Source of the DNA: Oscillospiraceae bacterium
GTDB lineage: Bacteria > Bacillota > Clostridia > Oscillospirales > Ruminococcaceae
Direction: 5' to 3'
Assembly (NCBI GenBank): GCA_045543635.1
Contig: JAZQMT010000083.1
Coordinates: forward strand, 1-49,840
DNA length: 49,840 bases
Shown: positions 24,322-41,590 of the stretch, piece after piece
How positions within the stretch are numbered: position 1 is the first letter of the stretch
Layout: every line of letters starts with the position of its first letter
Made by a program: the position numbers and the translations under genes
The notes under the pieces: generated by a model
The model's database searches: none
The model's input: the letters and a program-made list of their open reading frames with translations, nothing else
Told to the model about the DNA's origin: nothing

Positions 24322-24331
24322 GGAGAAGAGT

Positions 24332-25321
24332 ATGGAACTTAATTTAAAGGGAAAAAGCTTTTTAAAGCTTTTGGATTTCACCTCCGCAGAGATTGAGGGG
24401 CTTTTAGAGCTGGCTTCCGATCTTAAAAAACAGAAAAAAGCGGGCATCAGCCATCGCATATGCGAGGGAAAAAATGTCGCGCTGCTTTTTGAAAAGGATA
24501 GTACCCGAACTCGTTGCGCCTTTGAGGTCGCTGCGGCTGATTTAGGTATGCATCCTGTTTATTTGGGGCCTACCGGTTCGCAGATGGGTAAAAAAGAAAG
24601 CATTGCCGATACCGCGAGGGTGCTTGGCAGAATGTTTGACGGCATAGAATACCGCGGATTTGGGCAGGAAATCGTTGAAGAGCTTTCAAAATATGCAGGC
24701 GTGCCGGTGTGGAACGGTTTAACTAATGAATTTCACCCCACCCAAATTCTTGCCGATTTCTTAACGATAATGGAGCATTTCGGCTCTCTTAAAGGCAAAA
24801 AACTTGTTTATATGGGCGATGCCAGATACAATATGGGCAACTCTCTTATGGTCGGTTGTGCTAAAATGGGCATGCATTTTGTTGCCTGCGCACCAAAAAA
24901 ATATTTCCCCGAGGCTTCTCTTATAGAGGAATGTCAAAAGGTGGCTGCAGAAACAGGTGCTGTTTTAGAGTTTATTGAACAGCCCGAAACCGCTGTTCAA
25001 GGTGCCGATGTAATTTATACCGATGTATGGGTTTCGATGGGCGAGCCGCAAGAGGTTTGGGCAGAGCGTATCCGAGAGCTTTCTCCTTATCAGGTCACCA
25101 AAAAGCTTATGGATACAGCGGGAGACCAATGCCGATTTATGCACTGTTTGCCTGCATTTCATGATTTAAAAACGAAAATCGGAAAAGAAATTTTCGAGCA
25201 GTTTGGCATGGAAAGTTTAGAGGTTACCGATGAGGTGTTTGAAAGCGAGAAATCCATCGTTTTTGATGAGGCTGAAAATCGTTTGCACACCATTAAAGCG
25301 GTTATGGCGGCAACACTCTAA
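24332..25321 (+). CDS. argF: Ornithine carbamoyltransferase
   Basis: [24 protein letters not shown] motifs. Confidence 0.95.
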
Positions 25322-25339: not shown

Positions 25340-25368
25340 TTGACAAGGTTTTTTGCCTGTGCTATAAT
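25340..25368 (+). promoter_or_regulatory. Promoter of T-box unit 1
   Basis: TTGACA (25340-25345), 17 nt, TATAAT (25363-25368). Confidence 0.65.
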
Positions 25369-25374
25369 GTGTAC

Positions 25375-25646
25375 AAATTTTAAAAGGCTATGACGAAGAC
25401 GGTTTGGTGTTTTTCGCTTACAGAGAGTCGATGGGTGGTGCAAATCGACAGCAGAACTCCGAAAACCTATCCCTTCCGAGCCGGAAGCCCGAAAGCCTTT
25501 AAGGTGAGTAGACGCTTTCCGTGATTGCTGCGTAAAGGCATAGGGGTTGATAGACCCTAAAGAGTGGTAGCGAAAGCTGCAATTTGAGTGGTACCGCGGA
25601 TGTTTATAACACCCGTCTCAAAGGAAACTTTGAGGCGGGTTTTTTA
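25375..25646 (+). promoter_or_regulatory. T-box leader 1 (tentative specifier AUC, Ile)
   Basis: Stem I AGAGAG plus distal loop GGTGCAA. T-box sequence AATTTGAGTGGTACCGCGG (25581-25599). Terminator CCCGTCTCAAAG/CTTTGAGGCGGG (25612-25639) plus T-run. The specifier is placed by alignment to the K-turn GAGCC; candidate ATC at 25469-25471. Confidence 0.85.
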
Positions 25647-25674
25647 TTTTAATTTTTAAAAGGAGGAATTAAAA

Positions 25675-27942
25675 ATGTCGACTGTTGCAAACGATAAGAT
25701 GTATGAGGTGGCGATGCGAATTCGTGAAATGCGGCAGATAGCCGGATATTCAGAGGCTCTGATGGCAGAAAAAACCGAAACCGAGCTCAGTGAATATATA
25801 AAGCTCGAATCCGGTGAAATGGACTTTCCTTTTTCTTTTATTCATAAGTGTGCACAGGTGTTTGGTATCGGCATGTCCGATTTGCTTGAGGGAGCAACCA
25901 GTGCTCGCCTTACTTCTTACACCGTAACCCGAAAGGGCAAGGGCCAGCAGACTGCGAAAGAGGACGGAATTGATATTGCCAACCTTGCGCCAAAATTCAG
26001 AAATAAGATTGCCGAGCCTTATTGGGTTCGATATGAATATGATCCTGCACAGCAGAATAAGCCCATCCATTTGGCTACCCACAGCGGTCAGGAATTTGAC
26101 CTTGTTATCAGCGGCAAGCTTAAGGTTCAGGTGGGCGAACACACCGAGGTGCTTGAGGAGGGTGACAGCATTTATTATGACTCGTCCACACCGCACGGTA
26201 TGATTGCTGTAGACGGTCAGGAATGTGTATTTTGTGCAGTGGTTCTGCCCGGCGAAGATACCAAAGAGGAAACGGTGCGTCAGAGCATTGTCACCGCTAA
26301 AGCTTCCGAACCGCTTGTGTGTGAAAAGTTTGTTAAAACACAAGAGGATGAAAAGGGCGCTCTTAAAAACATTGAATTTACGAATACCGACTCCTTTAAC
26401 TTTGGATTTGATATTGTAGATGGTATTGCAGAGAAGTATCCTGATAAGCTGGCTATGCTTCATCTTGATGTAAACAGGTGTGAGAGACGCTTTACCTTTA
26501 AGGATATTAAGCAGTACTCCAATCAGGCTGCAAACTATTTCACCTCGCTTGGTATTAAACGCGGTGATAAGGTGATGCTTGTTTTAAAGCGCCATTATCA
26601 GTTCTGGTTTGCCATGGTGGCTCTTCATAAGCTGGGTGCTGTGGCTATCCCTGCCACCAACCAGTTAAAAGAGCACGATTTTGAATACCGTTATAATGCT
26701 GCGGGCGTTTCGGCTATTGTGTGTACTGCCGACGGAGACACTGCCGACATTGCCGCCGCAGCTGCAGAAAAATGCCCGCAGATGACCACAAAAATTTTAG
26801 TAGGCGGCTCTAAAGAGGGTTGGCATAATTTTGATGAGGAATTTCGCCTGTTCTCCCGCAAATTTGTCCGTCCCGACGATGCTTCTTCGGGAGAGGAGAC
26901 CGCGCTCATGTTCTTTACATCAGGCACTACAGGCAATCCCAAAATGGCAGCACATAAGCACACCTATGCGCTCGGCCATTTTGTCACCGCGAAATATTGG
27001 CACTGCTGCGAGAGAGACGGGCTGCATCTTACCATTTCGGATACCGGTTGGGGTAAAAGTCTTTGGGGTAAGCTGTATGGTCAATGGCTGTGCGAGGGTG
27101 CAGTGTTTGTTTATGATTTTGACAGGTTTGATGAAAATGATATTTTGCCTATGTTTGCAAAATACAACATCACAACCTTCTGCGCGCCTCCTACCATGCT
27201 GCGTATGCTTATCCGCGGTGATTTAAGTAAATATGATTTGAGCTCTATTCATCATATGACAACTGCCGGTGAGGCATTAAACCCCGAGGTCCATAAACAG
27301 TTTAAGGCGGCTACCGGTTTGGAGATTATGGAAGGTTTCGGACAGACCGAGACTACGCTTGCTATTGCCAACCTTGTCGGAACTACGCCCAAGATAGGCT
27401 CAATGGGCAAGGCATCCCCGCAATTTGATATTGATATTGTAGACTCCGACGGAAATAGTGTTGCTGCGGGCGAGGTTGGCGAAATCGTTATCCACACCGA
27501 TAAAAGTGTACCTTGCGGTCTTTATAAGGGCTACTATCTTGATGACGAAAAGACGAAAGATGCGTGGCATGACGGCATGTATCACACAGGCGATACCGCC
27601 TGGCGCGATGAGGATGGATATTTCTTCTATGTCAGCCGCGTTGATGATGTTATTAAGTCGTCAGGTTACCGTATCGGTCCCTTTGAAATTGAAAGTGTTA
27701 TCATGGAGCTTCCTTATGTTGTAGAGTGCGGTGTTTCAGCCGTTCCCGATGAGGTTCGCGGTCAGGTGGTTAAAGCAAGCATTGTTCTTACAAAAGGTAC
27801 GCAGCCTACAGAGGAGCTGAAAAAGGAAATTCAAAAATATGTTAAGGAGCACACGGCTCCCTATAAATATCCCCGTGTTGTTGTATTCTGTGATAGTCTT
27901 CCCAAAACTATCAGCGGAAAAATTCAAAGGAATAAGCTGTAA
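25675..27942 (+). CDS. HTH(XRE)-cupin-AMP-forming acyl-CoA synthetase fusion (755 aa), paralog 1
   Basis: aa 10-75 XRE-type HTH. Cupin HSGQEFDLVISGKL...GDSIYYDSSTPHGM. Then medium-chain ACS motifs: FFTSGTTGNPKM, YHTGDTAWRDEDGYFFYVSRVDDVIKSSGYRIGPFEIE, PKTISGKIQRNKL. Confidence 0.85.
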   Translation: MSTVANDKMYEVAMRIREMRQIAGYSEALMAEKTETELSEYIKLESGEMDFPFSFIHKCAQVFGIGMSDLLEGATSARLTSYTVTRKGKGQQTAKEDGIDIANLAPKFRNKIAEPYWVRYEYDPAQQNKPIHLATHSGQEFDLVISGKLKVQVGEHTEVLEEGDSIYYDSSTPHGMIAVDGQECVFCAVVLPGEDTKEETVRQSIVTAKASEPLVCEKFVKTQEDEKGALKNIEFTNTDSFNFGFDIVDGIAEKYPDKLAMLHLDVNRCERRFTFKDIKQYSNQAANYFTSLGIKRGDKVMLVLKRHYQFWFAMVALHKLGAVAIPATNQLKEHDFEYRYNAAGVSAIVCTADGDTADIAAAAAEKCPQMTTKILVGGSKEGWHNFDEEFRLFSRKFVRPDDASSGEETALMFFTSGTTGNPKMAAHKHTYALGHFVTAKYWHCCERDGLHLTISDTGWGKSLWGKLYGQWLCEGAVFVYDFDRFDENDILPMFAKYNITTFCAPPTMLRMLIRGDLSKYDLSSIHHMTTAGEALNPEVHKQFKAATGLEIMEGFGQTETTLAIANLVGTTPKIGSMGKASPQFDIDIVDSDGNSVAAGEVGEIVIHTDKSVPCGLYKGYYLDDEKTKDAWHDGMYHTGDTAWRDEDGYFFYVSRVDDVIKSSGYRIGPFEIESVIMELPYVVECGVSAVPDEVRGQVVKASIVLTKGTQPTEELKKEIQKYVKEHTAPYKYPRVVVFCDSLPKTISGKIQRNKL

Positions 27943-27957
27943 AATTTGCGATTGCTA

Positions 27958-27987
27958 TTGACAAATTTCCCTAAACTGTGATATACT
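27958..27987 (+). promoter_or_regulatory. Promoter of T-box unit 2
   Basis: TTGACA (27958-27963), 18 nt, TATACT (27982-27987), with TG at 27979-27980 (extended -10). Confidence 0.6.
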
Positions 27988-27993
27988 CATTTA

Positions 27994-28273
27994 TGTGTTA
28001 AAAGGCATTGACGAAGAGTATGCAAAAGAATGTCCCACAGAGAGATGGCGGGTTTGGTGAAAGTCCATCGGAAACAGCTTTTGTGTTTGTAGCTTCTGAG
28101 CCGGGAGGAAGAAAGTGATATTTACAAGTAGAACCTTCCCGTGATTGCTGCGTAAAGGCATAGAGGTTGATAGACCTTAAAGAGTGGCAGTGTAAGCTGC
28201 AATTTGAGTGGTACCGCGGGTGTAATTAACAGGCACTCGTCTCAAAGTCATAGCTTTGGGGCGGGTGCTTTTT
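27994..28273 (+). promoter_or_regulatory. T-box leader 2 (tentative specifier GUA, Val)
   Basis: AGAGAG plus GGTGAAA. T-box AATTTGAGTGGTACCGCGG (28201-28219). Terminator GCACTCGTCTCAAAG/CTTTGGGGCGGGTGC (28233-28268) plus T-run. Candidate codon GTA at 28089-28091. The 3' half is nearly identical to leader 1. Confidence 0.85.
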
Positions 28274-28301
28274 CGTCCCGATAGAACGGAGAAGGATTTA
28301 T

Positions 28302-30590
28302 ATGAAACAGATTACAGGGCTTGATTTCAAAATAAGAGAAATGGCAGGGCGAATTCGTGAGCTTCGTGAGATCGTCGGGCTAACCGCTGAGGAGATGGCG
28401 CAGAAAACCGATGTTTCGGTAGAAGAATACTTGCTTTGCGAAGAGGGCAAGAGTGATCTTAACTTTGCTTTTATCTATCGTTGTGCGCTTGCTTTCGGCG
28501 TTAATGTTACCGACATTATTGAGGGATACAGCCCCAACCTGCGCTCCTATACCGTTACAAGAAATCAGGCGGGTCAGGAGATAGCAAATGCACACGGCAT
28601 GACTTATTATAACCTTGCCTATGCTTTTCAAAACAGAATTGCCGAGCCGCTTTATGTCCGCAGTGTTTATGACGAGGCGGCACAGGGCAAGGATATTGAG
28701 CTTACGACCCATTCGGGGCAGGAATGTGATATTATCGTCGAAGGAAATCTCATGGTGCAGATAGGTGAGCACAGAGAAATTTTAGGTCCCGGCGACAGTA
28801 TTTACTTCGATAGCTCTACCCCGCACGGCATGATTGCTACCGGCGGTAAAGATTGTGTGTTCTACGCGATTGTTTTAAATCCGACGGGTGAACCCATTCC
28901 CGAGCTTACTGCCCGTCCTAAAATTCCTGAAACTGCAAAAATTCCTGATGATACCCGCGAGAGAATTTACCGCAATTATACCAAAGTTACAAAAAATGAA
29001 AACGGAACCCCGGTTTCCATTGAGTTTAAAAACACGGATAGGTTTAACTTTGCTTTTGACCTTGTGGATAAACTTGCAGAGCGTGAGCCCGAAAAGCTTG
29101 CAATGCTTCATATTTCAAAGGATAAAACCGAACGCCGTATAACATTTTCGGATGTAAGCCGTGCTTCTAACCAATGCGCGAATTATTTTAAATCGCTTGG
29201 CATTAAAAAGGGTGACCGCGTCATGCTGGTCCTAAAACGCCATTATCAGTTCTGGTTTGCAATGATTGGTTTAAATAAGCTTGGAGCCATTGCAATTCCC
29301 GCCACAAATCAGCTTTTGGAGCATGATTTTGAATATCGCTTCAAGGCAGCGGGTGTTAGTGCTGTTATCTGCACTGCCGATGGGGATACAGCAGCACAGG
29401 TTGATATAGCTGCTGAGAAATACGATGGTATAAAAAATAAGCTTATCGTTAACGGCAAGAGAGAGGGATGGCGCAGCTTTGACGAGGAGTACACCCTCTT
29501 TAACAGCTCTTTTGAGCGCACCGAGGATGCTCCCTGCGGTGATGATCTTTTACTTATGTTCTTCACATCGGGAACAACAGGCTATCCTAAAATAGCGGCA
29601 CATAGCCATAAATACCCACTGGGACACTTCCACACTGCGAAATATTGGCACAATGTTGATCCTGACGGGCTGCATTTTACCATTTCTGACACCGGTTGGG
29701 CAAAATCTATGTGGGGCAAGCTGTATGGGCAGTGGATGTGTGAGGCAGCAATATTTGTTTATGACTTTGATCGGTTTGATGCAGCGGATATTCTGCCCAT
29801 GTTTGCAAAATATAACATTACCACCTTCTGTGCACCGCCCACCATGCTGCGCATGATGATAAAGCAAGATATTTCAAAATATGATCTTTCGTCGGTCAAG
29901 CATATGACAACCGCGGGAGAGGCTTTAAACCCCGAGGTTTACCGCCAGTTTGAAAAAGCAACAGGTCTGCAGATTTTGGAGGGCTTCGGTCAGACAGAAA
30001 GCACTATGATCATTGGCAATATGCGCGGTGCGGCGCATAAGGTCGGCTCAATGGGTAAGCCCGCACCCATCTATAATGTCGAGATTATTGATGCAGACGG
30101 AAATCCTGTTCCCACAGGTGAACCGGGTGAAATCGTTATTAATGTTAAAGACGGTATGCCCTGCGGACTCTTTGTCGGTTACTATGGCGATGAGGAGAAA
30201 ACACACGAAGTTCTGCATGACGGATATTATCACACAGGTGATACCGCTTGGCGTGATGAGGACGGGTATTACTGGTATGTCGGCAGAGTTGATGATGTTA
30301 TTAAATCTTCGGGTTACCGTATTGGGCCTTTTGAGATTGAAAGCGTTATCATGGAGCTGCCTTATGTTCTTGAATGTGGTGTTTCAGCTGTTCCTGATGA
30401 GGTGCGCGGTCAAATCGTTAAGGCAAGTATTGTCCTAACAAAGGGCACCGAAGCAACCGAGGAGCTGAAAAAGGAAATTCAAAATTACGTTAAGGAGCAC
30501 ACTGCACCCTATAAATATCCCCGTGTTGTTGTTTTCCGCGAGAGCCTTCCTAAAACTGTCAGCGGAAAGATACAGCGCAATAAGCTATAA
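28302..30590 (+). CDS. HTH(XRE)-cupin-AMP-forming acyl-CoA synthetase fusion (762 aa), paralog 2
   Basis: Same three-module architecture as 25675-27942. Long identical runs, e.g. SSGYRIGPFEIESVIMELPYV, ECGVSAVPDEVRGQ, KEHTAPYKYPRVVVF. Confidence 0.85.
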   Translation: MKQITGLDFKIREMAGRIRELREIVGLTAEEMAQKTDVSVEEYLLCEEGKSDLNFAFIYRCALAFGVNVTDIIEGYSPNLRSYTVTRNQAGQEIANAHGMTYYNLAYAFQNRIAEPLYVRSVYDEAAQGKDIELTTHSGQECDIIVEGNLMVQIGEHREILGPGDSIYFDSSTPHGMIATGGKDCVFYAIVLNPTGEPIPELTARPKIPETAKIPDDTRERIYRNYTKVTKNENGTPVSIEFKNTDRFNFAFDLVDKLAEREPEKLAMLHISKDKTERRITFSDVSRASNQCANYFKSLGIKKGDRVMLVLKRHYQFWFAMIGLNKLGAIAIPATNQLLEHDFEYRFKAAGVSAVICTADGDTAAQVDIAAEKYDGIKNKLIVNGKREGWRSFDEEYTLFNSSFERTEDAPCGDDLLLMFFTSGTTGYPKIAAHSHKYPLGHFHTAKYWHNVDPDGLHFTISDTGWAKSMWGKLYGQWMCEAAIFVYDFDRFDAADILPMFAKYNITTFCAPPTMLRMMIKQDISKYDLSSVKHMTTAGEALNPEVYRQFEKATGLQILEGFGQTESTMIIGNMRGAAHKVGSMGKPAPIYNVEIIDADGNPVPTGEPGEIVINVKDGMPCGLFVGYYGDEEKTHEVLHDGYYHTGDTAWRDEDGYYWYVGRVDDVIKSSGYRIGPFEIESVIMELPYVLECGVSAVPDEVRGQIVKASIVLTKGTEATEELKKEIQNYVKEHTAPYKYPRVVVFRESLPKTVSGKIQRNKL

Positions 30591-30599
30591 GGTGAACTT

Positions 30600-31265
30600 A
30601 TGAATTTTAAGAGAATAACCATGCTTTGCGGGCATTATGGCAGCGGAAAAACCAATGTTGCCGTAAATCTCGCGATTGAAATGAGCAAAATGCATGATAA
30701 TGTTGTGGCGCTTGATTTGGATATTGTTAATCCTTATTTCAGAACAAAGGACAGCATGAAAGAGTTTGAGAAGGCAGGTATCCGCCTTATCGCTTCGGAA
30801 TATGCCAATACCAATGTCGATATTCCTGCGCTGCCGCAGGAAATGTATGCGGTAACCGACGATAAGAGCATCACAGCCGTTTTGGATGTGGGAGGAGACG
30901 ATCGGGGAGCGCTGGCGCTGGGGCGCCTTGCCCCCGCGATACTTTCTGAAAACGATTATGAAATGCTTATGGTCATAAACTGCTACCGTCCGCTTACCAA
31001 AACCGCAGAACAGACGATAGAAGTTATGCATGAAATCGAAACCGCCTGTAAAATGAAATTTACAGGTTTAGTCAATAACTCAAATCTCGGTGCAGTGACA
31101 ACGAAAGAGGATATATTAGCCTCTCTGCCTTATGCCGAGGAGGTTTCTCTCAAAACGGGGCTTCCCCTTGTTTTGACCAGTGTTCGCGAGGATATTTCCG
31201 AAGAACTTTTGGGAAAGGTTCCAAACCTTTTTCCGATGCGGCTTCAGAAAACCCTCTTGATATAA
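30600..31265 (+). CDS. MinD/ParA-like P-loop NTPase of unknown role
   Basis: Deviant Walker A, CGHYGSGKTNVAVNLA, and DLD (Walker A'/B region). No terminator on either side, so co-transcribed with the synthetase and OFOR genes. Confidence 0.7.
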   Translation: MNFKRITMLCGHYGSGKTNVAVNLAIEMSKMHDNVVALDLDIVNPYFRTKDSMKEFEKAGIRLIASEYANTNVDIPALPQEMYAVTDDKSITAVLDVGGDDRGALALGRLAPAILSENDYEMLMVINCYRPLTKTAEQTIEVMHEIETACKMKFTGLVNNSNLGAVTTKEDILASLPYAEEVSLKTGLPLVLTSVREDISEELLGKVPNLFPMRLQKTLLI

Positions 31266-31297
31266 CCTTTGGATTTTTATGAAAGGGAGTAATAAAT

Positions 31298-31504
31298 ATG
31301 GCAAAACTCACATTTAAAACCGACAACTGTAAGGGTTGCGGACTTTGTATTGATGCCTGCCCCAAGAAGCTTTTAAAGTTAGCTTCGGACAAGATCAACA
31401 AAAAAGGCCACCATCCTGCAGAATTAACTGACGAGGCTGCTTGCGTTGGCTGTGCGTCCTGCGCGATGATGTGCCCCGATTGTATCATCAAGGTAGAAAG
31501 GTAG
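31298..31504 (+). CDS. 2-oxoacid:ferredoxin oxidoreductase delta subunit (2x[4Fe-4S] ferredoxin)
   Basis: CKGCGLCIDACP and CVGCASCAMMCP motifs. Confidence 0.85.
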   Translation: MAKLTFKTDNCKGCGLCIDACPKKLLKLASDKINKKGHHPAELTDEAACVGCASCAMMCPDCIIKVER

Positions 31505-31512
31505 TGAAATAA

Positions 31513-32580
31513 ATGGCAGATAAAGTTTTAATGAAAGGAAACGAAGCAATTGCTGAAGCTGCAATTCTTGCAGGTTGCCGCCATTACTTTGGTTATCCTA
31601 TCACACCGCAAACGGAAATAGCAGCCTACATGGCAAAGAAAATGCCGAAGATCGGCGGATGCTTTTTGCAGGCAGAGAGTGAAATTGCCGCCATTAATAT
31701 GGTTTACGGCGTTTCTTCGACAGGTAAAAGAGTTATGACCTCGTCTTCCTCCCCCGGAATTTCCTTAAAGGGTGAGGGACTTTCGTATCTCGCAGGTGCA
31801 GACCTTCCCGCTCTTATTGTAAATGTTCAGCGCGGCGGTCCCGGGCTGGGCGGTATCCAGCCCTCACAGTCGGATTATTTCCAGGCAACCAGAGCTGCCG
31901 GCCACGGAGACTTTCATATGATTGTTTTGGCTCCTGCCTCTGTTCAGGAAATGGCAGAGCTCACTGTTCGCGGATTTGAGCTTGCTGATACATATAGAAT
32001 GACTTCCATGATTTTGGCGGACGGTACTATGGGCCAGATGATGGAGCCGGTGTCTCTTGATTTTGAGGTAAAGCCTGCTCCCGCAAAGCCCTGGGCTACC
32101 ACCGGAACCAAAATGGAAAGAGAGCACAATATTGTAAACTCTCTGTTCCTTGTTCCCGATGATCTTGAAAAGACTAACTTTGAGCGCTATGAGCGTTATA
32201 AGAAAATCGAGGAAACCGAAACCATGTACGAGGAGTATATGATGGAGGATGCCGAAATCTGCGTTGCAGCATTCGGTATTGCTGCAAGAGTTTCCAAAAA
32301 TGCCGTTAACGAGGCAAGAAAAATGGGAATAAAGGTCGGTCTTATCCGTCCCATCACCCTTTGGCCGTTCCCGAAAGCTCCTTTCAAGGCTGCTGCCGAA
32401 AAGGTAAAACAAATTATCTCTGTTGAGCTTTCTATGGGACAGATGATCGAGGATGTCAAGATGGCGTCCGAATGCAAGGTTCCCGTAACTCTTTGTAACC
32501 GTGTCGGCGGAATGATTCCCTCTCCCGAGCAGGTTTTACAGGCAATACAAGAGGCTCATAAAAACGGAGGTGCAAAATAA
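31513..32580 (+). CDS. 2-oxoacid:ferredoxin oxidoreductase alpha subunit (VorB/KorA-like)
   Basis: GNEA.AEAA..AGC....GYPITPQTEI N-terminus typical of OFOR alpha subunits. Confidence 0.85.
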   Translation: MADKVLMKGNEAIAEAAILAGCRHYFGYPITPQTEIAAYMAKKMPKIGGCFLQAESEIAAINMVYGVSSTGKRVMTSSSSPGISLKGEGLSYLAGADLPALIVNVQRGGPGLGGIQPSQSDYFQATRAAGHGDFHMIVLAPASVQEMAELTVRGFELADTYRMTSMILADGTMGQMMEPVSLDFEVKPAPAKPWATTGTKMEREHNIVNSLFLVPDDLEKTNFERYERYKKIEETETMYEEYMMEDAEICVAAFGIAARVSKNAVNEARKMGIKVGLIRPITLWPFPKAPFKAAAEKVKQIISVELSMGQMIEDVKMASECKVPVTLCNRVGGMIPSPEQVLQAIQEAHKNGGAK

Positions 32581-33338
32581 TGGCAGTTGTATTTGAGAAA
32601 CCCCATGCATTAACAGATGCTCCCATGCATTACTGCCCCGGCTGCACACACGGTATCGTTCACCGCCTTGTTGCCGAGGTTATCGACGAATTAGGTATCG
32701 AGGGCAAAACCATCGGTATTGCTCCGGTTGGCTGCTCTGTTATGGCTTATAACTATTTTGCTTGCGATATGATCGAGGCTGCACACGGCAGAGCTCCCGC
32801 TGTTGCAACAGGCGTTAAACGCTCCGATCCCGAAAATCACATCGTTTTCACCTATCAGGGCGATGGAGACTTAGCTTCTATCGGTATGGCTGAAACCGTT
32901 CATGCCGCCGCAAGAAACGAGAATATTACCGTTATCTTTATTAACAACGCTATTTATGGTATGACAGGTGGTCAGATGGCTCCCACCTCGCTGCCCGGTC
33001 AGGTCACCCAGACCTCGCCTTACGGCAGAGACACAAGCCACTGCGGTTTCCCTGTTAAGGTTTGCGAAATGCTTTCTCAGCTTGATGGACCCGAGTATTT
33101 AGAGCGTGTCACGGTTAACAATGTGAAAAATATCCGTGCTGCAAAGAAAGCTATCAAAAAAGCATTTCAAAATCAGGTCGAGGGCAAGGGCTTCTCTCTT
33201 GTTGAAGTCGTTTCCTCCTGTCCGACCAACTGGGGCATGACTCCGCAGGCGGCTCTTAAATGGATCGACGATAATATGCTTCCTTATTATCCTCTCGGAG
33301 TTTATAAGGATAGAAGCGCTAAAAAGGAGGAAGAATAA
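32580..33338 (+). CDS. 2-oxoacid:ferredoxin oxidoreductase beta subunit (TPP-binding)
   Basis: YCPGCTHG, GDGD....G, NN..YGMTGGQ TPP motif. The start overlaps the alpha stop (TAATG). Confidence 0.9.
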   Translation: MAVVFEKPHALTDAPMHYCPGCTHGIVHRLVAEVIDELGIEGKTIGIAPVGCSVMAYNYFACDMIEAAHGRAPAVATGVKRSDPENHIVFTYQGDGDLASIGMAETVHAAARNENITVIFINNAIYGMTGGQMAPTSLPGQVTQTSPYGRDTSHCGFPVKVCEMLSQLDGPEYLERVTVNNVKNIRAAKKAIKKAFQNQVEGKGFSLVEVVSSCPTNWGMTPQAALKWIDDNMLPYYPLGVYKDRSAKKEEE

Positions 33339-33871
33339 TGGCTACAAAACAGTATCTGTTTTCAGGATTCGGCGGTCAGGGAATTTTGTTTTCGGGCAAG
33401 TTCCTTGCCTATAAAGGGCTTACCGAGGGTAAAAATGTCAGCTGGCTTCCTTCCTATGGTCCCGAAATGCGTGGCGGAACTGCTAGCTGCAGTGTTATCA
33501 TCAGTGACGAGGCAGTAGGCTCTCCCATCGTTTCCAACCCCGATGTTCTTGTCGCTATGAACCTTCCCTCGCTCGATAAGTTTGAGGAAGCAGTTGTTCC
33601 CGGCGGCATCATCATCGCTGACTCCACGCTCATTGAGAGAAAAGTTAAACGCGATGATGTAACGGTTTATTATGTTCCTGCAACACGCCTTGCAAGTGAA
33701 AATGAAATTCCCACCCTCGCGAATATGATCATCATTGGCAAGCTCATGCAGGCTGTCAGCGAGTATAGCGAGGAGAGCGTTAACACCGCGCTTTCCAAGG
33801 TCATCTCGGCAAAACGCGCCAATATGCTTGAGGCAAACTTTAAGGCGATCAAAATCGGCGCAGAATACTAA
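33338..33871 (+). CDS. 2-oxoacid:ferredoxin oxidoreductase gamma subunit
   Basis: GFGGQGILFSGK...YGPEMRGG motif. Confidence 0.85.
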   Translation: MATKQYLFSGFGGQGILFSGKFLAYKGLTEGKNVSWLPSYGPEMRGGTASCSVIISDEAVGSPIVSNPDVLVAMNLPSLDKFEEAVVPGGIIIADSTLIERKVKRDDVTVYYVPATRLASENEIPTLANMIIIGKLMQAVSEYSEESVNTALSKVISAKRANMLEANFKAIKIGAEY

Positions 33872-33888
33872 TTTGGGAGGAAAAGTCA

Positions 33889-34953
33889 ATGCAGATTTCT
33901 TTTACAAAAACCACCTGCCCCAAAGAAAAACCCGATAGCAGCACTTTGGGCTTTGGTAAAATCTTTACCGACCATATGTTTATGATGGATTATTCGAGAG
34001 AAAAGGGTTGCTGGTATAATGCCAGAATAGTTCCTTTTGAGAATATTTCCCTTCACCCCGCTTCAACCGTTCTGCACTACGGCTCGGAGATTTTTGAGGG
34101 ACTTAAGGCTTACAGAAGAAAGGACGGAAAGGTTCAGCTTTTCCGCCCCATCGAAAATATCCGCCGCATGAACAATTCGGCAGAGCGCCTTTGCCTTCCT
34201 CAGATTCCTGAGGAGGATGCAATGCAGGTTTTAACCGAATTTGTAAAGGTTGAGCAGGATTGGACCCCCGGCGCAGAGGGAACCTCTCTTTATCTGCGTC
34301 CCTTTATGTTCGGAAATGATGAGTCTCTGGGTGTTCACGCCGTTCATAATGCAACCTTTGTTATCATTGCTTCCCCAGTCGGCAGCTATTATAAAGAGGG
34401 CATTAACCCCGTTAAGATCATGATTGAGGATGAGGATGTCAGAGCTGTTCGCGGTGGTACCGGTTATGCAAAATGCGGCGGTAACTACGCTGCAAGTAAC
34501 CGCGCAGGCGAGCGAGCAGAACGAAAGGGCTATTCTCAGGTGCTCTGGCTCGATGGCGTTGAGAGAAAATATATCGAGGAAGTCGGCGCTATGAACGTTA
34601 TGTTCAAGATAAATGGCGAGATTGTAACACCCGCCCTTACCGGCTCAATCCTTCCCGGTATTACCAGAAAATCCTGCATCGAGCTTCTTACAAAAGAGGG
34701 CTATAAAGTCAGTGAGAGACTTCTTTCTATCGATGAGCTCTCGGCTGCTTTAGAAAACGGAACACTTGAAGAAGCTTGGGGCTGCGGCACCGCGGCTGTT
34801 GTTTCCCCCATCGGTGAGCTTTGCTATAAAGGCAAAAAATACACTGTTTCGGGCGGCAAGATCGGAGAGGTCACCCAGCACCTTTATGATACCTTAACAG
34901 GTATCCAGTGGGGTAAAATCGAGGATACATTCGGTTGGACTGTAGAACTCTAA
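33889..34953 (+). CDS. ilvE: Branched-chain amino acid aminotransferase (long, class IV)
   Basis: FGK.FTDHM, H..LHYG...FEGLKAYR, GG.G.AK..GNYA, GITR, GTAAVV.P motifs. Confidence 0.9.
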   Translation: MQISFTKTTCPKEKPDSSTLGFGKIFTDHMFMMDYSREKGCWYNARIVPFENISLHPASTVLHYGSEIFEGLKAYRRKDGKVQLFRPIENIRRMNNSAERLCLPQIPEEDAMQVLTEFVKVEQDWTPGAEGTSLYLRPFMFGNDESLGVHAVHNATFVIIASPVGSYYKEGINPVKIMIEDEDVRAVRGGTGYAKCGGNYAASNRAGERAERKGYSQVLWLDGVERKYIEEVGAMNVMFKINGEIVTPALTGSILPGITRKSCIELLTKEGYKVSERLLSIDELSAALENGTLEEAWGCGTAAVVSPIGELCYKGKKYTVSGGKIGEVTQHLYDTLTGIQWGKIEDTFGWTVEL

Positions 34954-34965
34954 TAGGAAATGCAG

Positions 34966-34991
34966 GGAGGGGATTATTCCCCTCCTTTTTT
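34966..34991 (+). terminator. Rho-independent terminator ending the T-box-2 unit
   Basis: GGAGGGGA-TTAT-TCCCCTCC followed by TTTTTT. Confidence 0.85.
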
Positions 34992-35037
34992 GCGGGAGGA
35001 TGTGTACACGCACCATACAAAAAATCTTAAAAAACTG

Positions 35038-35066
35038 TTGACAAGGAAAAAAAGCGGTGATATAAT
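35038..35066 (+). promoter_or_regulatory. Promoter of T-box unit 3
   Basis: TTGACA (35038-35043), 17 nt, TATAAT (35061-35066), preceded by TGA (extended -10). Confidence 0.65.
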
Positions 35067-35072
35067 AGGTGC

Positions 35073-35346
35073 ATATTTTAAATGCGTTGAAGGAATTATT
35101 TTTTACTCGCATTTTCATTTCAGAGAGCTGCCGGTGGTGTGAGTGCGGTATGAAAAGGGTAGAAAAGTCTCATTCCGGAGCAGAGCGGCTGAAATTTTTA
35201 AAGTAAGCGGCTTCGGTTTGCCCCGTTACCATGGCAAAAGGCTTGATTGAGCTTTGATGAGAGGCTGCGCTTTGCAGCAATCAGGGTGGTACCGCGAAAG
35301 TATTTTCGTCCCTGAGACCGAAATTGTCGGTCTCAGGGCTTTTTTA
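35073..35346 (+). promoter_or_regulatory. T-box leader 3 (specifier CUC, Leu)
   Basis: AGAGAG plus GGTGTGA. Specifier-loop context GAAAAGT-CTC-A (codon 35169-35171 followed by A), then TTCC/GGAA pairing and K-turn GGAGCA. T-box AATCAGGGTGGTACCGCG. Terminator CCCTGAGACCG/CGGTCTCAGGG (35310-35338) plus T-run. Confidence 0.85.
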
Positions 35347-35386
35347 TTGCAGGGGAACGGCAAGAATAAGAAAGGAAAGAAAGTTT

Positions 35387-36766
35387 ATGAAACAAATCAA
35401 AATCGCAGACACAACGCTTTGCAGAAAAGAGGGCGCATTTTCGTTTAAAGAGAAGATTGAAATTGCCCGCCAGTTAGAAAAACTTTGTGTTGATGTTATT
35501 GAGCTTCCCGAAATTGAAAACGCAAAAACTGATATTTTGCTTGTAAAAACGATTTCCTCTTTTGTTAAAAAGAGTGTTATTTCGGTTGCCGCGGGAAGCA
35601 GCCGCGAGAGTATTGAGAATGCCGCGTTAGCACTTTCCAACGCTCAAAAAGGCAGAATTCGTATTCAGCTTCCCGTTTCCCCTGTCACAATGGAATATGT
35701 AAGCCGCAAAAAAGCCCCCAAAATGCTTGAGTGGATTTCTGAGGCGGTTTCTTTTGCAAAAGAGAAATGCGCTGATGTTGAGTTTTGCGCTGTAGATGCC
35801 ACCCGCGCTGATAACGGCTATCTGGCGCAGGCTATCGAGGCTGCAGTTTCTGCAGGGGCTACCTGTGTAACTGTTTGCGATAGTGCCGCCGAAATGATGC
35901 CCGATGATTTTGCTGCTTTTATTGCACAAACCATAAAGGAGTGCAGGGTTCCTGTCGGCGTTCATTGCGAAAATAAAAACGGACTTGCGGTTGCCGCCGC
36001 TATCCTCTCGGTAAGAGTGGGAGCAGACTGTGTTAAGACTTCGGTAAACGGTGAGGGTGTTCCTCTTGATACCTTTGCAAATATGATTCGCAACTGCGGA
36101 AATAACTATGATTTTGAGGCGGGAATTCGCAGCACCGAGCTTCATAGAATAGTAAAACAGATCAACTGGATTGCGGGAAACAGCGAAAATGCAAAATCCG
36201 TTGTTTCTGTATCAAATGCGGATGAGATTGGAATTCATCTTGATGTTAAGGATTCTCAGGAGGATGTTTATGCCGCTGTTAAAAAGCTCGGCTATGACCT
36301 TTCTGAGGAGGATCAAGCAAGAGTTTATGAAGAGTTTATCCGCGTTGCCGCTAAAAAGACTGTTGGCGCAAAAGAGCTGGATGCTATCGTTGCCAGCGTT
36401 GCTCTGCAGGTTCCCTCAACCTATCAGCTTGTAAGTTATGTTATAAATAACGGAAACATCATTTCCGCAACCGCACAGATTACCCTCAACAAAAACGGCG
36501 CTCCTATGCAGGGCTTCTCACTTGGTGACGGACCTATTGACGCCGCTTTCCTCGCTATCGACCAGATTATCGGCCACCACTATGAGCTTGATGATTTCCA
36601 GATCCAGTCGGTAACCGAGGGAAAAGAGGCTATGGGCTCTGCATTGGTTAAGCTTCGTGCGGGCGGTAAGCTCTATTCAGGCAACGGAATTTCCACTGAT
36701 ATTATCGGTGCAAGCATCAGAGCTTATCTCAATGCCGTGAATAAAATTGTTTATGAGGAGGCATAA
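35387..36766 (+). CDS. 2-isopropylmalate synthase-like protein with a degenerate catalytic site and an intact LeuA regulatory (LeuA_dimer) domain
   Basis: HMGL-like barrel, but DTTLRDGEQ is DTTLCRKEG, HCHND is HCENK, and GERAGN is GEGVPL. The C-terminus keeps GDGPIDAAF...TEGKEAMG...GNGISTDIIGASIRAYLNAVNK. The ATG at 35387 lies downstream of the leader terminator. Confidence 0.75.
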   Translation: MKQIKIADTTLCRKEGAFSFKEKIEIARQLEKLCVDVIELPEIENAKTDILLVKTISSFVKKSVISVAAGSSRESIENAALALSNAQKGRIRIQLPVSPVTMEYVSRKKAPKMLEWISEAVSFAKEKCADVEFCAVDATRADNGYLAQAIEAAVSAGATCVTVCDSAAEMMPDDFAAFIAQTIKECRVPVGVHCENKNGLAVAAAILSVRVGADCVKTSVNGEGVPLDTFANMIRNCGNNYDFEAGIRSTELHRIVKQINWIAGNSENAKSVVSVSNADEIGIHLDVKDSQEDVYAAVKKLGYDLSEEDQARVYEEFIRVAAKKTVGAKELDAIVASVALQVPSTYQLVSYVINNGNIISATAQITLNKNGAPMQGFSLGDGPIDAAFLAIDQIIGHHYELDDFQIQSVTEGKEAMGSALVKLRAGGKLYSGNGISTDIIGASIRAYLNAVNKIVYEEA

Positions 36767-36768
36767 AA

Positions 36769-39288
36769 ATGAAACTTTCCTTTTCAACAAAGGGTTGGCA
36801 TGATAATTCCTTTGAGGAATTTTGTGATATTGCAGTTGATTTAGGCTTCAAGGGAATAGAATTGCACAATATTTATAACAGACTCTTTACCGAGCGTGAC
36901 GGCGCATTTCACGATTATGCTGCCGCTGCAACGCTGCGTCGTCTCTATGAAAAAAATCTTACCATTCCCTGTATTGACACCATCTGCGATATAGCGGATG
37001 AAAATCAGGCAGAAAAAGCTGTCGAGGAAATAGAAAAATGTCTTGCGATTGCAGAAAATCTGCATATTCCGAATATCCGCCTGCGTGCATTTAAGAAAGA
37101 GGACACCGAAAAAGCCTGCGAGGCTGTTTTTGCTCTGCTTTCTAAAATGATTCCCAATGCAGAGGAAAAGGGCGTTACCCTTGTTTTGGAAACCTCAGGA
37201 ATTTTTGCAAACACTGCCGCTCTCAGAGATATGCTTGACCGCTTTGCCTGCGATAATTTAGGTGCGCTCTGGAATTTCTCTGCAGCTTATTTTGAAAGCG
37301 GCGAAGAGCCTGAAACGGTTATCAAAAATCTCGGTGCATATGTCCGCCATGTGCATTTTAACGATGCTGTTAAGACCGAAAACGGCATGGAATATTGCCT
37401 CGCCGGCGAAGGAGATCTCCCGATCAGTGAGCTGATGCTTTCGCTGCGCTCTGTAAACTATGACGGATTTATTTCGCTCGTCTGGGATCCAGCTTGGTGC
37501 GAGGAACTCGATGATATGGAGATCATTTTCTCCCAGTTTACAAACTTTATGAAGCAATTTAAGGCTGTGTCTCGAAATGAGAAACAGTTGTATTACAATC
37601 GCGCACATACAGGTAAATTTATTTGGGAAAAAGATAAGATTATTGATCTGACCTTTTCACAGGTGTTAGACAGAATGGTAGAGGAATTTCCTGACCAGTA
37701 TGCCTTTAAGTACACAACTTTAGATTATACCCGAACATACAGTGAATTTCGTGACGATGTGGACACCTTTGCCCGTGCTCTTATTTCAATGGGCGTAAAA
37801 GCGGGAACAAAGGTTGCTGTCTGGGCTTCCAATGTGCCGCAGTGGTATATTGCATTTTGGGCAACCGTTAAAATCGGTGCTGTTCTAGTTACTGTCAACA
37901 CCGCTTATAAAATTCATGAGGCTGAATATCTCTTGCGCCAGTCTGATACACACACACTGGTGCTCACCGAGGGCGCAAAGGACACCCACTATGGCAAGAT
38001 CGTTGCAGAGCTTTGCCCAGAACTTGCAGAAAAAGAGCCGACAGAGCCTTTGCACAGCAAACGCCTGCCTTTCCTGCGCAATGTCATCACAGTCGGATTT
38101 AAACAGAAAGGGTGTATGACATGGAGTGAGGCAGTTGAGCGCGCCGCGCAGGTTTCGCCCGAAGAGGTTCGGCGCATGGCTTGCGCCGTTGACAAGGATG
38201 ATGTCTGCAATATGCAGTACACATCGGGAACAACAGGCTTCCCCAAGGGCGTTATGCTCACTCACTATAATGTTGTTAATAACGGCAAATATATCGGTGA
38301 CCACATGGATCTGTCCACTGCTGACAGAATGATGATTCAGGTTCCCATGTTTCATTGTTTCGGAATGGTCCTTTCCATGACCGCTTCGATGACACACGGA
38401 ACTACCATGTATCCTTTGCCGTACTTTTCTCCAAAACCGGCACTGGCTTGCGTTCACAATGAACATATCACCACCTTTAACGGTGTTCCTACCATGTTTA
38501 TCGCCATGATGGAGCACCCCGATTTTGCAAAGACTGATTTCTCTTATATCCGCACAGGCATTATGGCAGGTGCTAACTGCCCTGCCGACCTTATGAAAAA
38601 GGCAACCGAGGTTATGAACATGAAAGAAATCGTCTCGGTTTACGGGCAGACTGAGGCAAGCCCCGGCTGTACGATGAGCAGTTATTATGATTCGTTAGAG
38701 GTTCGCACAGAAACTGTCGGAAGCGCATTTGCCAATGTTGAGTGTAAGGTTGTTGACCCTGAAACGGGTGTGGACTGCCCTGATGGGGTGGATGGTGAAT
38801 TTGTTGCCCGCGGCTATAACATTATGAAAGGCTATTATAAAATGCCTGCTGCAACCGCTGCTGCTATTGATAAGGATGGCTGGCTGCACACAGGCGACCT
38901 TGCATGCCGCACCCCCGAAGGTAACTACCGTATCACCGGCAGACTGAAGGATATGATTATTCGCGGCGGTGAGAATATTTACCCCAAGGAAATTGAGGAA
39001 TTTATTTATACGCATCCCAAGGTCAGCGATGTTCAGGTTATCGGTGTTCCCGATAAACAGTATGGCGAGGAAATTATGGCTTGCATTATTCTGAAAGAAG
39101 GTCAGAGCATGACCGCTGATGAAATGAAAGCCTATATCGGAGCAAATATGGCACGCCATAAGGTTCCGCGTTATATTGATTTTGTTGATAGCTTTCCCAT
39201 GAATGCTGCAGGTAAGATTCTTAAATATAAAATGCGTGAGGATGCTGCAAAAAAACTGGGTTTAGATGAGGCGGGAAATAACAAATGA
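36769..39288 (+). CDS. Fusion: xylose-isomerase-like TIM barrel (sugar phosphate isomerase/epimerase family) + AMP-dependent acyl-CoA ligase (839 aa)
   Basis: N-terminal roughly 270 aa: GFKGIELH...LVLE...HVHFND pattern of AP-endo-2/XylA-like TIM barrels. C-terminus: YTSGTTGFPKGVMLTH, YGQTE, GWLHTGDL, RLKDMIIRGGENIYPKEIE, AGKILK. Confidence 0.8.
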   Translation: MKLSFSTKGWHDNSFEEFCDIAVDLGFKGIELHNIYNRLFTERDGAFHDYAAAATLRRLYEKNLTIPCIDTICDIADENQAEKAVEEIEKCLAIAENLHIPNIRLRAFKKEDTEKACEAVFALLSKMIPNAEEKGVTLVLETSGIFANTAALRDMLDRFACDNLGALWNFSAAYFESGEEPETVIKNLGAYVRHVHFNDAVKTENGMEYCLAGEGDLPISELMLSLRSVNYDGFISLVWDPAWCEELDDMEIIFSQFTNFMKQFKAVSRNEKQLYYNRAHTGKFIWEKDKIIDLTFSQVLDRMVEEFPDQYAFKYTTLDYTRTYSEFRDDVDTFARALISMGVKAGTKVAVWASNVPQWYIAFWATVKIGAVLVTVNTAYKIHEAEYLLRQSDTHTLVLTEGAKDTHYGKIVAELCPELAEKEPTEPLHSKRLPFLRNVITVGFKQKGCMTWSEAVERAAQVSPEEVRRMACAVDKDDVCNMQYTSGTTGFPKGVMLTHYNVVNNGKYIGDHMDLSTADRMMIQVPMFHCFGMVLSMTASMTHGTTMYPLPYFSPKPALACVHNEHITTFNGVPTMFIAMMEHPDFAKTDFSYIRTGIMAGANCPADLMKKATEVMNMKEIVSVYGQTEASPGCTMSSYYDSLEVRTETVGSAFANVECKVVDPETGVDCPDGVDGEFVARGYNIMKGYYKMPAATAAAIDKDGWLHTGDLACRTPEGNYRITGRLKDMIIRGGENIYPKEIEEFIYTHPKVSDVQVIGVPDKQYGEEIMACIILKEGQSMTADEMKAYIGANMARHKVPRYIDFVDSFPMNAAGKILKYKMREDAAKKLGLDEAGNNK

Positions 39289-40100
39289 TAGCAAATTACA
39301 AGGTTATTGACTCGCATTGCCATGTCTATCCTGAAAAGATAGCAGCTGCTGCAGTAGGCGCAACCGATAGATTTTACAACACCGTTTCTGCTTTTGATGG
39401 CAGCACCGGTGCACTGCTCTCGCAATGTGAGAGAGAGGGCGTTGACCATGCGGTCATTCAATCTGTTGCCACAACGCCAAAACAGGTTTCCAGTATTAAT
39501 CGTTTTATTGCAAAAACGGTTGAGGAGAACAAAAATAAGTTTACGGGGCTCGGCACACTCCACCCTGACAGCGCAGATATTGCCGCCGATGTGCGTGAGA
39601 TAATTGAGCTTGGGCTTCATGGAGTAAAACTTCACCCGGATATTCAGCGGTTTAAAATAGATGATTATCGCTGTCTTAAGATTTATGAGCTGTGTGAGAG
39701 AGAGGGGCTTCCCATTCTTATGCATACAGGCGATAACCGCTATGATTTTTCTAATCCAAATAGACTACTGCCTATTTTAAATATCTATACAGGGCTTGTT
39801 GTAATAGGTGCGCATCTCGGCGGCTGGTCTATTTGGGAACAAGCGGGGCAGGTTTATCCGCAATTTGATAACTTCTATGTGGATACCTCCTCAACACTTT
39901 CTTTTTGCGGACCTGAAATAATGAAAAAAGTTATCAAAGCATATGGTGCAGATAAAGTTATGTTTGCAAGCGATTATCCCATGGGAGCACAGCAAAAGGA
40001 AATAGATGCACTGCTTTCGATGCAATTTGCGCAGGAGGATTACAAAAAAATATTCTCCGAAAATGCGAAAAAGGTGTTTAAAATCAAAGGTGACATATAA
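39285..40100 (+). CDS. Amidohydrolase-2 family metal-dependent hydrolase (271 aa)
   Basis: IDSHCHVYP N-terminal HxH-type motif, H.D. and SDYP motifs of the COG2159-type TIM-barrel hydrolases/decarboxylases. Overlaps the stop of the upstream gene. Confidence 0.7.
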   Translation: MIANYKVIDSHCHVYPEKIAAAAVGATDRFYNTVSAFDGSTGALLSQCEREGVDHAVIQSVATTPKQVSSINRFIAKTVEENKNKFTGLGTLHPDSADIAADVREIIELGLHGVKLHPDIQRFKIDDYRCLKIYELCEREGLPILMHTGDNRYDFSNPNRLLPILNIYTGLVVIGAHLGGWSIWEQAGQVYPQFDNFYVDTSSTLSFCGPEIMKKVIKAYGADKVMFASDYPMGAQQKEIDALLSMQFAQEDYKKIFSENAKKVFKIKGDI

Positions 40101-40105
40101 ATTTG

Positions 40106-40134
40106 GATTACGGCGGGTATATCGCGCCGTAATC
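40106..40134 (+). terminator. Hairpin ending the T-box-3 unit
   Basis: GATTACGGCG / CGCCGTAATC stem. The T-run is displaced (AGAAAAATTTGTTTTTTT). Confidence 0.55.
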
Positions 40135-40155
40135 AGAAAAATTTGTTTTTTTCTA

Positions 40156-40184
40156 TTGACTTTTGAAAAAAATAGGAGTAAAAT
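40156..40184 (+). promoter_or_regulatory. Promoter of the aromatic supraoperon
   Basis: TTGACT (40156-40161), 17 nt, TAAAAT (40179-40184). Confidence 0.6.
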
Positions 40185-40217
40185 TTTTTTATTAAGTAAT
40201 TGAAAGGAGTGGGCAAA

Positions 40218-40286
40218 ATGTTCTTTTTTGCATATCGATACTATTTTATCAAGGGCTGCCCGCTTTCTTTTCAGTCGGAAAAGTAA
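40218..40286 (+). CDS. Phe/Tyr-rich leader peptide (22 aa): MFFFAYRYYFIKGCPLSFQSEK
   Basis: AAGGAG SD 8 nt upstream of the ATG. 4 Phe plus 3 Tyr in codons 2-10. The stop codon sits in the loop of hairpin CGGAAAA-GTAA-TTTTCCG (40276-40293). Confidence 0.55.
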   Translation: MFFFAYRYYFIKGCPLSFQSEK

Positions 40287-40312
40287 TTTTCCGCTAAAAT
40301 TAAGAGGACAGT

Positions 40313-40367: not shown

Positions 40368-40394
40368 ATTGAAATTTTTAACGGAGATGATAAA

Positions 40395-41579: not shown

Positions 41580-41590
41580 GGAGTACTGTT

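Follow-up and report, generated by a model that had tools for sequence, protein, structure and literature searches.

A 49,840-nt stretch of DNA from an Oscillospiraceae bacterium (GCA_045543635.1, contig JAZQMT010000083.1, forward strand), here called the window, carries at approximately 25340-40152 a module of three operons within about 15 kb, each preceded on the plus strand by its own promoter and its own T-box leader. We consider it likely that this module serves the salvage of branched short-chain fatty acids (BCFA), which would be converted to branched-chain amino acids (BCAA) by way of the acyl-CoA and the 2-oxoacid. As judged from the sequence, this reading is well supported for the isoleucine and valine arms and is weaker for the leucine arm.

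In the proposed scheme, RNA polymerase would read through a T-box when the cognate tRNA is uncharged, and each of the three operons would in this manner be switched on separately. The Ile T-box would control a single acyl-CoA synthetase (ACS1) that converts 2-methylbutyrate to 2-methylbutyryl-CoA. The Val T-box would control a second synthetase (ACS2, isobutyrate to isobutyryl-CoA) together with a P-loop accessory protein, a four-subunit 2-oxoacid:ferredoxin oxidoreductase (OFOR) of the VOR type, and the aminotransferase IlvE. The OFOR would form 2-oxoacids by reductive carboxylation of the branched acyl-CoAs with CO2 and reduced ferredoxin, and IlvE would transaminate the branched 2-oxoacids to the BCAA. 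The Leu T-box would switch on a fusion of a TIM barrel with an acyl-CoA synthetase (TIM-ACS) that activates isovalerate, a catalytically degenerate paralogue of LeuA whose leucine-type regulatory domain would act as an end-product sensor, and an amidohydrolase to which the scheme assigns no role. A tRNA-gated sequence of activation, carboxylation and transamination had already been proposed in a preliminary description of this region; all of the computed evidence supports its core, but the Leu unit differs from what was described there.

The leaders were sought with the Rfam covariance model RF00230, which has a gathering score of 93. Three full-length matches were obtained, each covering model positions 1-219: 25381-25623 (83.7 bits, E = 6e-18), 27999-28247 (85.7 bits, E = 1.9e-18), and 35078-35316 (117.8 bits, E = 1.5e-25), the last of which is above the gathering score. 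The AGAGAG, GGTG and GGTGGTACCGCG elements are present in the leaders, and the antiterminator bulge GGUGGUACCGCG reads UGGU, in keeping with the UGGN of this RNA family and compatible with a tRNA carrying A73. In leaders 1, 2 and 3 alike, the 5' arm of a terminator hairpin followed by a U-run is also the 3' arm of the antiterminator, and this sharing of an arm identifies the leaders as transcriptional T-boxes, for which read-through on uncharged cognate tRNA is predicted. The three complete leaders with overlapping terminators that had been reported earlier were thus all recovered. Of all sigma-70-type promoter matches in the 15-kb region, the best three stand directly in front of the leaders and all have an extended -10 TG, and the position of the promoter before the leader is kept across species. 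A weak match to the caiA small RNA model of Rfam at 25603-25677 (29.7 bits, E = 0.034, gathering score 55.5), overlapping the terminator of leader 1 and the ribosome binding site of ACS1, was regarded as due to chance. The coordinates of all features are listed in Table 1.

Table 1. Features of the three T-box operons, in window coordinates.
Feature	Position	Strand	Details
Promoter, unit 1	25340..25368	+	TTGACA-17-TATAAT with TG; 12/12 match
T-box leader 1, Ile type	25381..25650	+	specifier AUC 25469-25471; 13-bp terminator 25611-25640, then U-run
ACS1, 755 aa	25675..27942	+	HTH_19 + Cupin_2 + AMP-forming acyl-CoA synthetase (Pfam)
Promoter, unit 2	27958..27987	+	TTGACA-18-TATACT with TG; 11/12 match
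T-box leader 2, Val type	27999..28275	+	specifier GUA 28089-28091; 18-bp terminator
ACS2, 762 aa	28302..30590	+	HTH_19 + Cupin_2 + AMP-forming acyl-CoA synthetase (Pfam)
P-loop NTPase, 221 aa, MinD/ParA/NUBPL-like	30600..31265	+	Walker A GHYGSGKT; weak CbiA/NUBPL matches
OFOR delta, 2x[4Fe-4S] ferredoxin, 68 aa	31298..31504	+	CxxCxxCxxxCP motifs; OGOR_delta/PorD_KorD matches
OFOR alpha, VorB type	31513..32580	+	NF005507 VorB 534.8 bits (cut-off 399); POR_N + PFOR_II
OFOR beta, thiamine diphosphate (TPP)-binding	32580..33338	+	TPP_enzyme_C; 2-oxoacid:ferredoxin oxidoreductase beta models below cut-offs
OFOR gamma	33338..33871	+	POR domain
IlvE, class IV branched-chain aminotransferase	33889..34953	+	NF009897 480 bits (cut-off 307); TIGR01123 405 bits (cut-off 250)
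Terminator ending unit 2	34965..34990	+	GGGAGGGG...CCCCTCC, then T6
Promoter, unit 3	35038..35066	+	TTGACA-17-TATAAT with TG; 12/12 match
T-box leader 3, Leu type	35078..35348	+	specifier CUC 35169-35171; 12-bp terminator 35310-35338
LeuA paralogue, 459 aa	35387..36766	+	HMGL-like + LeuA_dimer; LeuA_dimer 103 bits
TIM-ACS, 839 aa	36769..39288	+	xylose-isomerase-like TIM barrel + AMP-forming acyl-CoA synthetase; PRK12583 best match
Amidohydro_2 metal hydrolase/decarboxylase-like protein, 271 aa	39285..40100	+	best PDB match 3IRS (uncharacterised); weak LigW/ACMSD matches
Terminator ending unit 3	40106..40152	+	hairpin -23.1 kcal/mol, z -5.2, then U-rich tail

The register of the covariance model places AUC, GUA and CUC in the specifier positions of leaders 1, 2 and 3, respectively; these are the same codons that had been put forward in the preliminary description, and they are conserved across species. 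For this comparison, at least 595 stretches with matching relatives were found in a collection of species-representative genomes, 80 loci were fetched, and the register was set by pairing anchored on the K-turn helix. Leaders preceding ACS1-type genes had ATC in all of the 47 resolved cases. Before ACS2-type genes, 61 of 66 leaders had GTA and 3 had GTC; the remaining two read ATC, and both of these are the upstream copy in a tandem pair. The leaders of unit 3 carried CTC (17) or CTG (2) in all but one of 20, with a further six CTC assigned by eye, and most of the leaders left unresolved give the same codons by eye. The specifier follows the type of the synthetase paralogue, and the synonymous changes between GTA and GTC and between CTC and CTG argue that selection acts on what the codon means. 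The specifier is followed by a purine in leaders 2 and 3, and by A, C or G in leaders of the Ile type. Leaders 1 and 2 are approximately 95% identical from Stem III to the antiterminator and divergent in Stem I, a pattern which indicates a tandem duplication of leader and gene, followed by a switch of the specifier.

Three further observations concern T-boxes and tRNAs. An extra T-box motif in locus L024 proved to be a chance match within a coding region. Genes for tRNA-Val(CAC) and tRNA-Gly(CCC) are found at 354-509 of the window; the former would not read the GUA of leader 2, so that a tRNA-Val(UAC) must be encoded elsewhere. Finally, in locus L003 (~950-1250) a separate Phe (TTC) T-box lies about 9 kb upstream of the module, before a pair of genes encoding 337 and 795 aa which, by their sizes only, are likely to be pheST.

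The synthetases behind the Ile and Val T-boxes share 65% identity along their whole length. Both contain the AMP-binding and AMP-binding_C domains (E = 1e-65 and 7e-68) characteristic of the ANL adenylate-forming fold. Their earlier identification as AMP-forming synthetases is therefore correct, but it had missed the helix-turn-helix (HTH) and cupin module at their N-termini. The top NCBIfam model for both proteins is MbcS. The catalytic part of ACS2 matched PDB entry 3ETC, MacsMa of Methanosarcina acetivorans, over approximately 515 residues (E = 2.5e-184), and the hallmarks of the MacsMa pocket are kept in both synthetases: a Gly in place of Trp416 of Acs and the alternative Trp (Trp259 in MacsMa), with GFGQTE and TAKYW conserved. 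MacsMa prefers 2-methylbutyrate and adenylates acids from C3 to C8 (PMC10455477); purified MbcS activates 2-methylbutyrate and isobutyrate, isovalerate barely, and acetate not at all (PMC10026030). The substrate range of MbcS would account for the presence of two MbcS-like paralogues, for Ile and Val, alongside an unrelated third synthetase for Leu. We propose that ACS1 is a 2-methylbutyrate-CoA ligase and ACS2 an isobutyrate-CoA ligase.

Only 15 positions cleanly split 44 Ile-type from 61 Val-type orthologues of these synthetases. Five of them are in the catalytic part (N325H, A467G, M470L, A482G and M569L), within motifs which, going by studies of Acs, presumably line the acyl pocket; A467G belongs to the DTGW-x-K motif, where the Ile type, ACS1 included, has Gly, as does MacsMa. 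The other ten (N54P, Y59H, R60K, I72L, I73L, P78A, A97E, M100I, Y102I and L117Y) are in the HTH-cupin part (25675-26400 and 28302-29030 of the window), which suggests a paralogue-specific function there, for example in ligand or DNA specificity. This N-terminal part of approximately 240 aa weakly resembles regulators of the PuuR type. No palindrome that could serve as its operator emerged from a search for enriched 8-mers and an alignment of about 150 promoter regions, in which the shared features were limited to the promoter hexamers and to A/T-rich tracts upstream.

In the second operon the genes follow the order ACS2, P-loop protein, OFOR delta, alpha, beta and gamma, and ilvE, with gaps of 0-32 nt through the P-loop, OFOR and aminotransferase genes. 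The unit is tightly packed and runs, as had been stated before, up to its terminator, and all of the subunits of a four-subunit OFOR are present. Of the 81 sequences compared, 59 have the P-loop protein adjoining the OFOR. The protein belongs to a compact family (~220 aa) with 432 representative clusters at E<=1e-30; a sequence search of the PDB returned no match to it. A part in the maturation of the OFOR would be our guess.

The third operon required a correction of two earlier statements, that each leader precedes an AMP-forming synthetase and that none precedes an ilv or leu gene. The first of these holds for leaders 1 and 2 but not for leader 3, behind which the synthetase comes second and forms part of a fusion with a TIM barrel. 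The second is formally wrong, since the first gene of unit 3 belongs to the LeuA family, even though its product appears to be non-catalytic. This protein scores below every 2-isopropylmalate synthase (IPMS) model of NCBIfam (best 288 bits, cut-off 532). When it is compared with the IPMS structures 3RMJ and 3EWB, DTTL-RDGEQ is replaced by DTTL-CRKE-G, HCHND by HCENK, and GLGERAGN by GEGVP. The RDGEQ, HxH..D and GERAGN positions vary among 35 orthologues, and conservation is highest in the regulatory domain (0.75, compared to 0.52 in the barrel). The AlphaFold model (mean predicted local distance difference test score 80, above 90 in the barrel) is within a root mean square deviation of 1.8-2.1 Å of IPMS catalytic domains and matches the full-length LeuA of M. 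tuberculosis; the regulatory domain alone had no match in a sequence search of the PDB. NCBI names the relatives of this paralogue 'hypothetical protein'. The LeuA paralogue and TIM-ACS were present in 35 and 34, respectively, of the 81 sequences compared, and are found together. We infer that the paralogue may be a non-catalytic or neofunctionalised partner of the synthetase that senses leucine.

TIM-ACS scored 660 bits against PRK12583 (cut-off 832); it shares only 25% identity with ACS2 and is of a different family. Its synthetase part is more conserved (0.76) than its TIM domain (0.54), and a fold search with the latter returned generic barrels only (ketose 3-epimerases, isomerases and dehydratases). 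From its context only, we propose that it is an isovalerate-CoA ligase. The amidohydrolase encoded by the last gene has several His and Asp residues that are invariant, and a search of NCBIfam gave no match to it.

The module is widely conserved. The HTH-cupin-ACS and TIM-ACS fusions have thousands of homologues each, at >75-80% identity, in metagenome-assembled genomes (MAGs) from the ruminant and human gut that are labelled Oscillospiraceae, Ruminococcaceae, Acutalibacteraceae or Clostridia. The genes are usually arranged as T-box and ACS1; T-box, ACS2, P-loop protein, delta, alpha, beta, gamma and IlvE; and T-box, LeuA-like protein, TIM-ACS and amidohydrolase. In rearranged loci unit 3 is inverted or comes first, and every T-box stays with its own genes. 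Across approximately 80 species-level genomes the module is self-contained, while its flanks differ. Clustering of 1117 open reading frames (ORFs) from the 80 loci revealed no co-travelling genes besides those of the module, and no recurrent leuBCD, ilvBCD or transporter genes; ORF clusters 9-11 were rejected as spurious antisense ORFs. A stand-alone Val-type T-box with an HTH-cupin-ACS gene was seen in loci L030, L035, L043, L045, L052, L054, L056, L066, L071 and L073, where no OFOR, IlvE or unit 3 is present within 10 kb and the neighbours are unrelated. The partner enzymes may be encoded elsewhere in these genomes, or the synthetase may serve a different purpose there.

Anabolic salvage is the most economical reading of this arrangement, since induction by uncharged tRNA suits supply only, AMP-forming ligases run toward the acyl-CoA, VOR-type OFORs and IlvE are reversible, and IlvE completes the route. 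Several observations nevertheless weigh against it. In the window, leaders 1 and 2 are slightly under the Rfam gathering score, though far beyond chance, and orthologues of both types pass it in other genomes. Leader 1 has a C after the codon and no evident S-turn of the canonical AGUA/GAA form. One orthologous leader of the Leu unit (L015:1250-1494, 121.5 bits) reads CCC followed by A, which could reflect either a shift of register or a change of specificity. ACS1 and ACS2, at 433 and 447 bits, miss the MbcS equivalog cut-off of 850. The beta, gamma and delta subunits of the OFOR reach no equivalog cut-off, and a specificity for branched substrates is suggested by the name of the model matched and by gene context. 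The substrate of the third synthetase is not inferable by homology, and the reading does not account for three of the genes or domains in unit 3. Lastly, in every locus compared the OFOR and IlvE lie behind the Val T-box only, so that starvation for Ile only or for Leu only would induce nothing but the activating enzyme. The earlier proposal of one dedicated enzyme per amino acid under its cognate tRNA consequently holds for the activation step only; the OFOR and IlvE are shared.

One alternative explanation is that the synthetases chiefly supply branched acyl-CoA primers for membrane fatty acids, and that the T-boxes sense a shortage of BCAA, which would signal that the usual BCAA-derived primers are being lost. 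In classical work on ruminococci, BCFA reportedly went into lipids as well as amino acids, which speaks for such a role. Primer supply is also the function in Staphylococcus aureus of MbcS, the closest named family of ACS1 and ACS2 (PMC10026030). ACS1 is monocistronic, and in the genomes with a stand-alone T-box and ACS2 no OFOR is nearby. On the other hand, in about 50 loci ACS2 is co-transcribed behind the Val T-box with an OFOR and IlvE, which would be needless for primers, and T-boxes are otherwise known to control genes of aminoacyl-tRNA supply. Although primer supply and BCAA salvage are not mutually exclusive, we regard the former as unlikely to be the chief role.

A second possibility is that the module does serve the salvage of amino acids, with other substrates: ACS1 could activate propionate, which the OFOR would convert to 2-oxobutyrate as a precursor of Ile, and the third synthetase could act on an acid other than isovalerate. 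Formation of Ile from propionate via 2-oxobutyrate is known in anaerobes. The assignments made here are by homology only, the PRK12583-like family of the third synthetase has no characterised close relative, and the C3-C8 range of MacsMa (PMC10455477) would accommodate such a substrate. However, both of the nearest characterised homologues prefer 2-methylbutyrate or isobutyrate, the Ile-type paralogue has the MacsMa-like Gly in its DTGW-x-K motif, and the route through 2-oxobutyrate would need ilvBCD, which is never co-localised with the module; we therefore hold this possibility to be quite improbable. Finally, a catabolic cluster leading from IlvE through the OFOR and acyl-CoA to branched acids, in the manner of the oxidative Stickland branch, for which the same reversible enzyme types do run oxidatively in amino-acid fermenters, is very improbable indeed, as switching it on with uncharged tRNA would lead to the breakdown of the amino acid in short supply, its AMP-forming synthetases would spend ATP on acyl-CoA and conserve no energy, and the module contains no phosphotransacylase/kinase, ADP-forming synthetase or CoA-transferase.

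The control of the module may comprise two stacked layers of sensing, one formed by the T-box RNAs that read tRNA charging and another by a protein-level sensor belonging to each activating enzyme, namely the HTH-cupin part of the Ile and Val synthetases and, for the synthetase of the Leu unit, the dead IPMS paralogue as a leucine-binding subunit. This suggestion is tentative, and we consider it possible rather than likely. If true, it would mean that the allosteric domain of LeuA has been repurposed, as a stand-alone protein, into an end-product sensor for an unrelated enzyme, and the BCFA requirement of gut and rumen Clostridia would for the first time be defined at the gene level.

The surroundings of the module in the window consist of further amino acid biosynthesis genes. 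At 11133-25321 and 40395-49566, all on the plus strand, these form a supercluster with the module: hisZ-like/hisGDCBHAF-IE-PHP, argCJBDF, the module itself, and aminotransferase-pheA-aroB-aroC-aroE/K-aroA. The adjacency of the arg genes with ACS1 and ACS2 recurs in two close relatives (L001 and L081), not in most other genomes. A look-up of the exact ACS2 sequence of the window gave no record; a 99%-identical relative is found in the same arg-ACS1-ACS2 context. Downstream of the module, the region 40204-40390 has a ribosome binding site followed by a 22-codon ORF (40218-40286, MFFFAYRYYFIKGCPLSFQSEK) with four Phe and three Tyr among its first 10 residues; it is followed by a structured RNA and by a U7 terminator hairpin, just upstream of the aminotransferase-pheA-aro genes, and a promoter-like site precedes the ORF at 40156-40184. 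This region looks like a Phe/Tyr leader-peptide attenuator, a type of element which to our knowledge is unusual for Clostridia.

It has long been known that branched-chain volatile fatty acids act as growth factors for anaerobes of the rumen and gut, and these acids also serve as feed additives. We could find no earlier definition of the bacterial genes for their conversion to amino acids, or of the regulation of these genes. The module offers candidate genes for each step, and predicts both the acid for each synthetase and the response to the charging of tRNA-Ile, tRNA-Val and tRNA-Leu, so that a nutritional observation sixty years old becomes directly testable. The module also adds acyl-CoA synthetases and a ferredoxin oxidoreductase to the T-box regulon and, if the proposed salvage is correct, would provide a marker for annotating BCFA-dependent amino acid supply in hundreds of uncultured Clostridia of the gut and rumen. 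The analysis also revealed two unusual kinds of protein, namely synthetases fused to an HTH-cupin module and a degenerate LeuA paralogue that has a fused synthetase as its partner.

Compared to the T-boxes of BCAA operons, such as the Leu-specific one of ilv-leu in Bacillus and that of leuA in Geobacter, the leaders described here belong to the same RNA family and share the attenuation mechanism, the logic of supply and, for Leu, the CUC specifier. They differ in their targets, which are acyl-CoA synthetases and an OFOR instead of ilv/leu enzymes, transporters or aminoacyl-tRNA synthetases, and in that three paralogous switches split the activation step among Ile, Val and Leu. The T-box regulon surveys that we examined list only biosynthetic genes of the ilv/leu type, transporters and aminoacyl-tRNA synthetases as targets, and no description of T-box-controlled BCFA assimilation was found in the full-text literature, although a mention in Vitreschak et al. 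2008 is not excluded; within these limits, the opinion voiced in the preliminary description that such wiring had not been described stands.

The proteins, too, have known counterparts. ACS1 and ACS2 have the catalytic region and the pocket hallmarks in common with MacsMa and MbcS, to which they add the HTH-cupin module, control by a T-box and a link to an OFOR and IlvE; by this link, their product would feed amino acids instead of, or besides, lipids. An HTH fused to an adenylate-forming enzyme also occurs in BirA, a likeness that is one of analogy only, as the folds and families of the HTH-cupin-ACS proteins are unrelated to it, no conserved operator was found near the promoters, and DNA binding is hypothetical. 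The paralogue in unit 3 shares with LeuA the fold and the LeuA_dimer domain, but not the substrate and metal motifs, and in the loci compared its partner is always the acyl-CoA synthetase fusion and never leuBCD.

The closest parallel to the pathway as a whole is found in physiology. Methanogens possess anabolic VOR/IOR enzymes together with CoA ligases, and Allison, Bryant and co-workers are said to have established that rumen bacteria reductively carboxylate branched-chain acids to BCAA. The chemistry proposed here, from acid through acyl-CoA and 2-oxoacid to amino acid, is the same, and so are the habitats, as the MAGs are of gut and rumen origin; whereas that work, as far as we could find, dealt with the physiology and not with bacterial gene clusters or how they are regulated, the genes of the present module are clustered, dedicated to one amino acid each where activation is concerned, and under the control of riboswitches. 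Taken together, the T-box mechanism and the physiology of reductive carboxylation were both already known, and what appears to be new is their combination and its definition at the level of genes.

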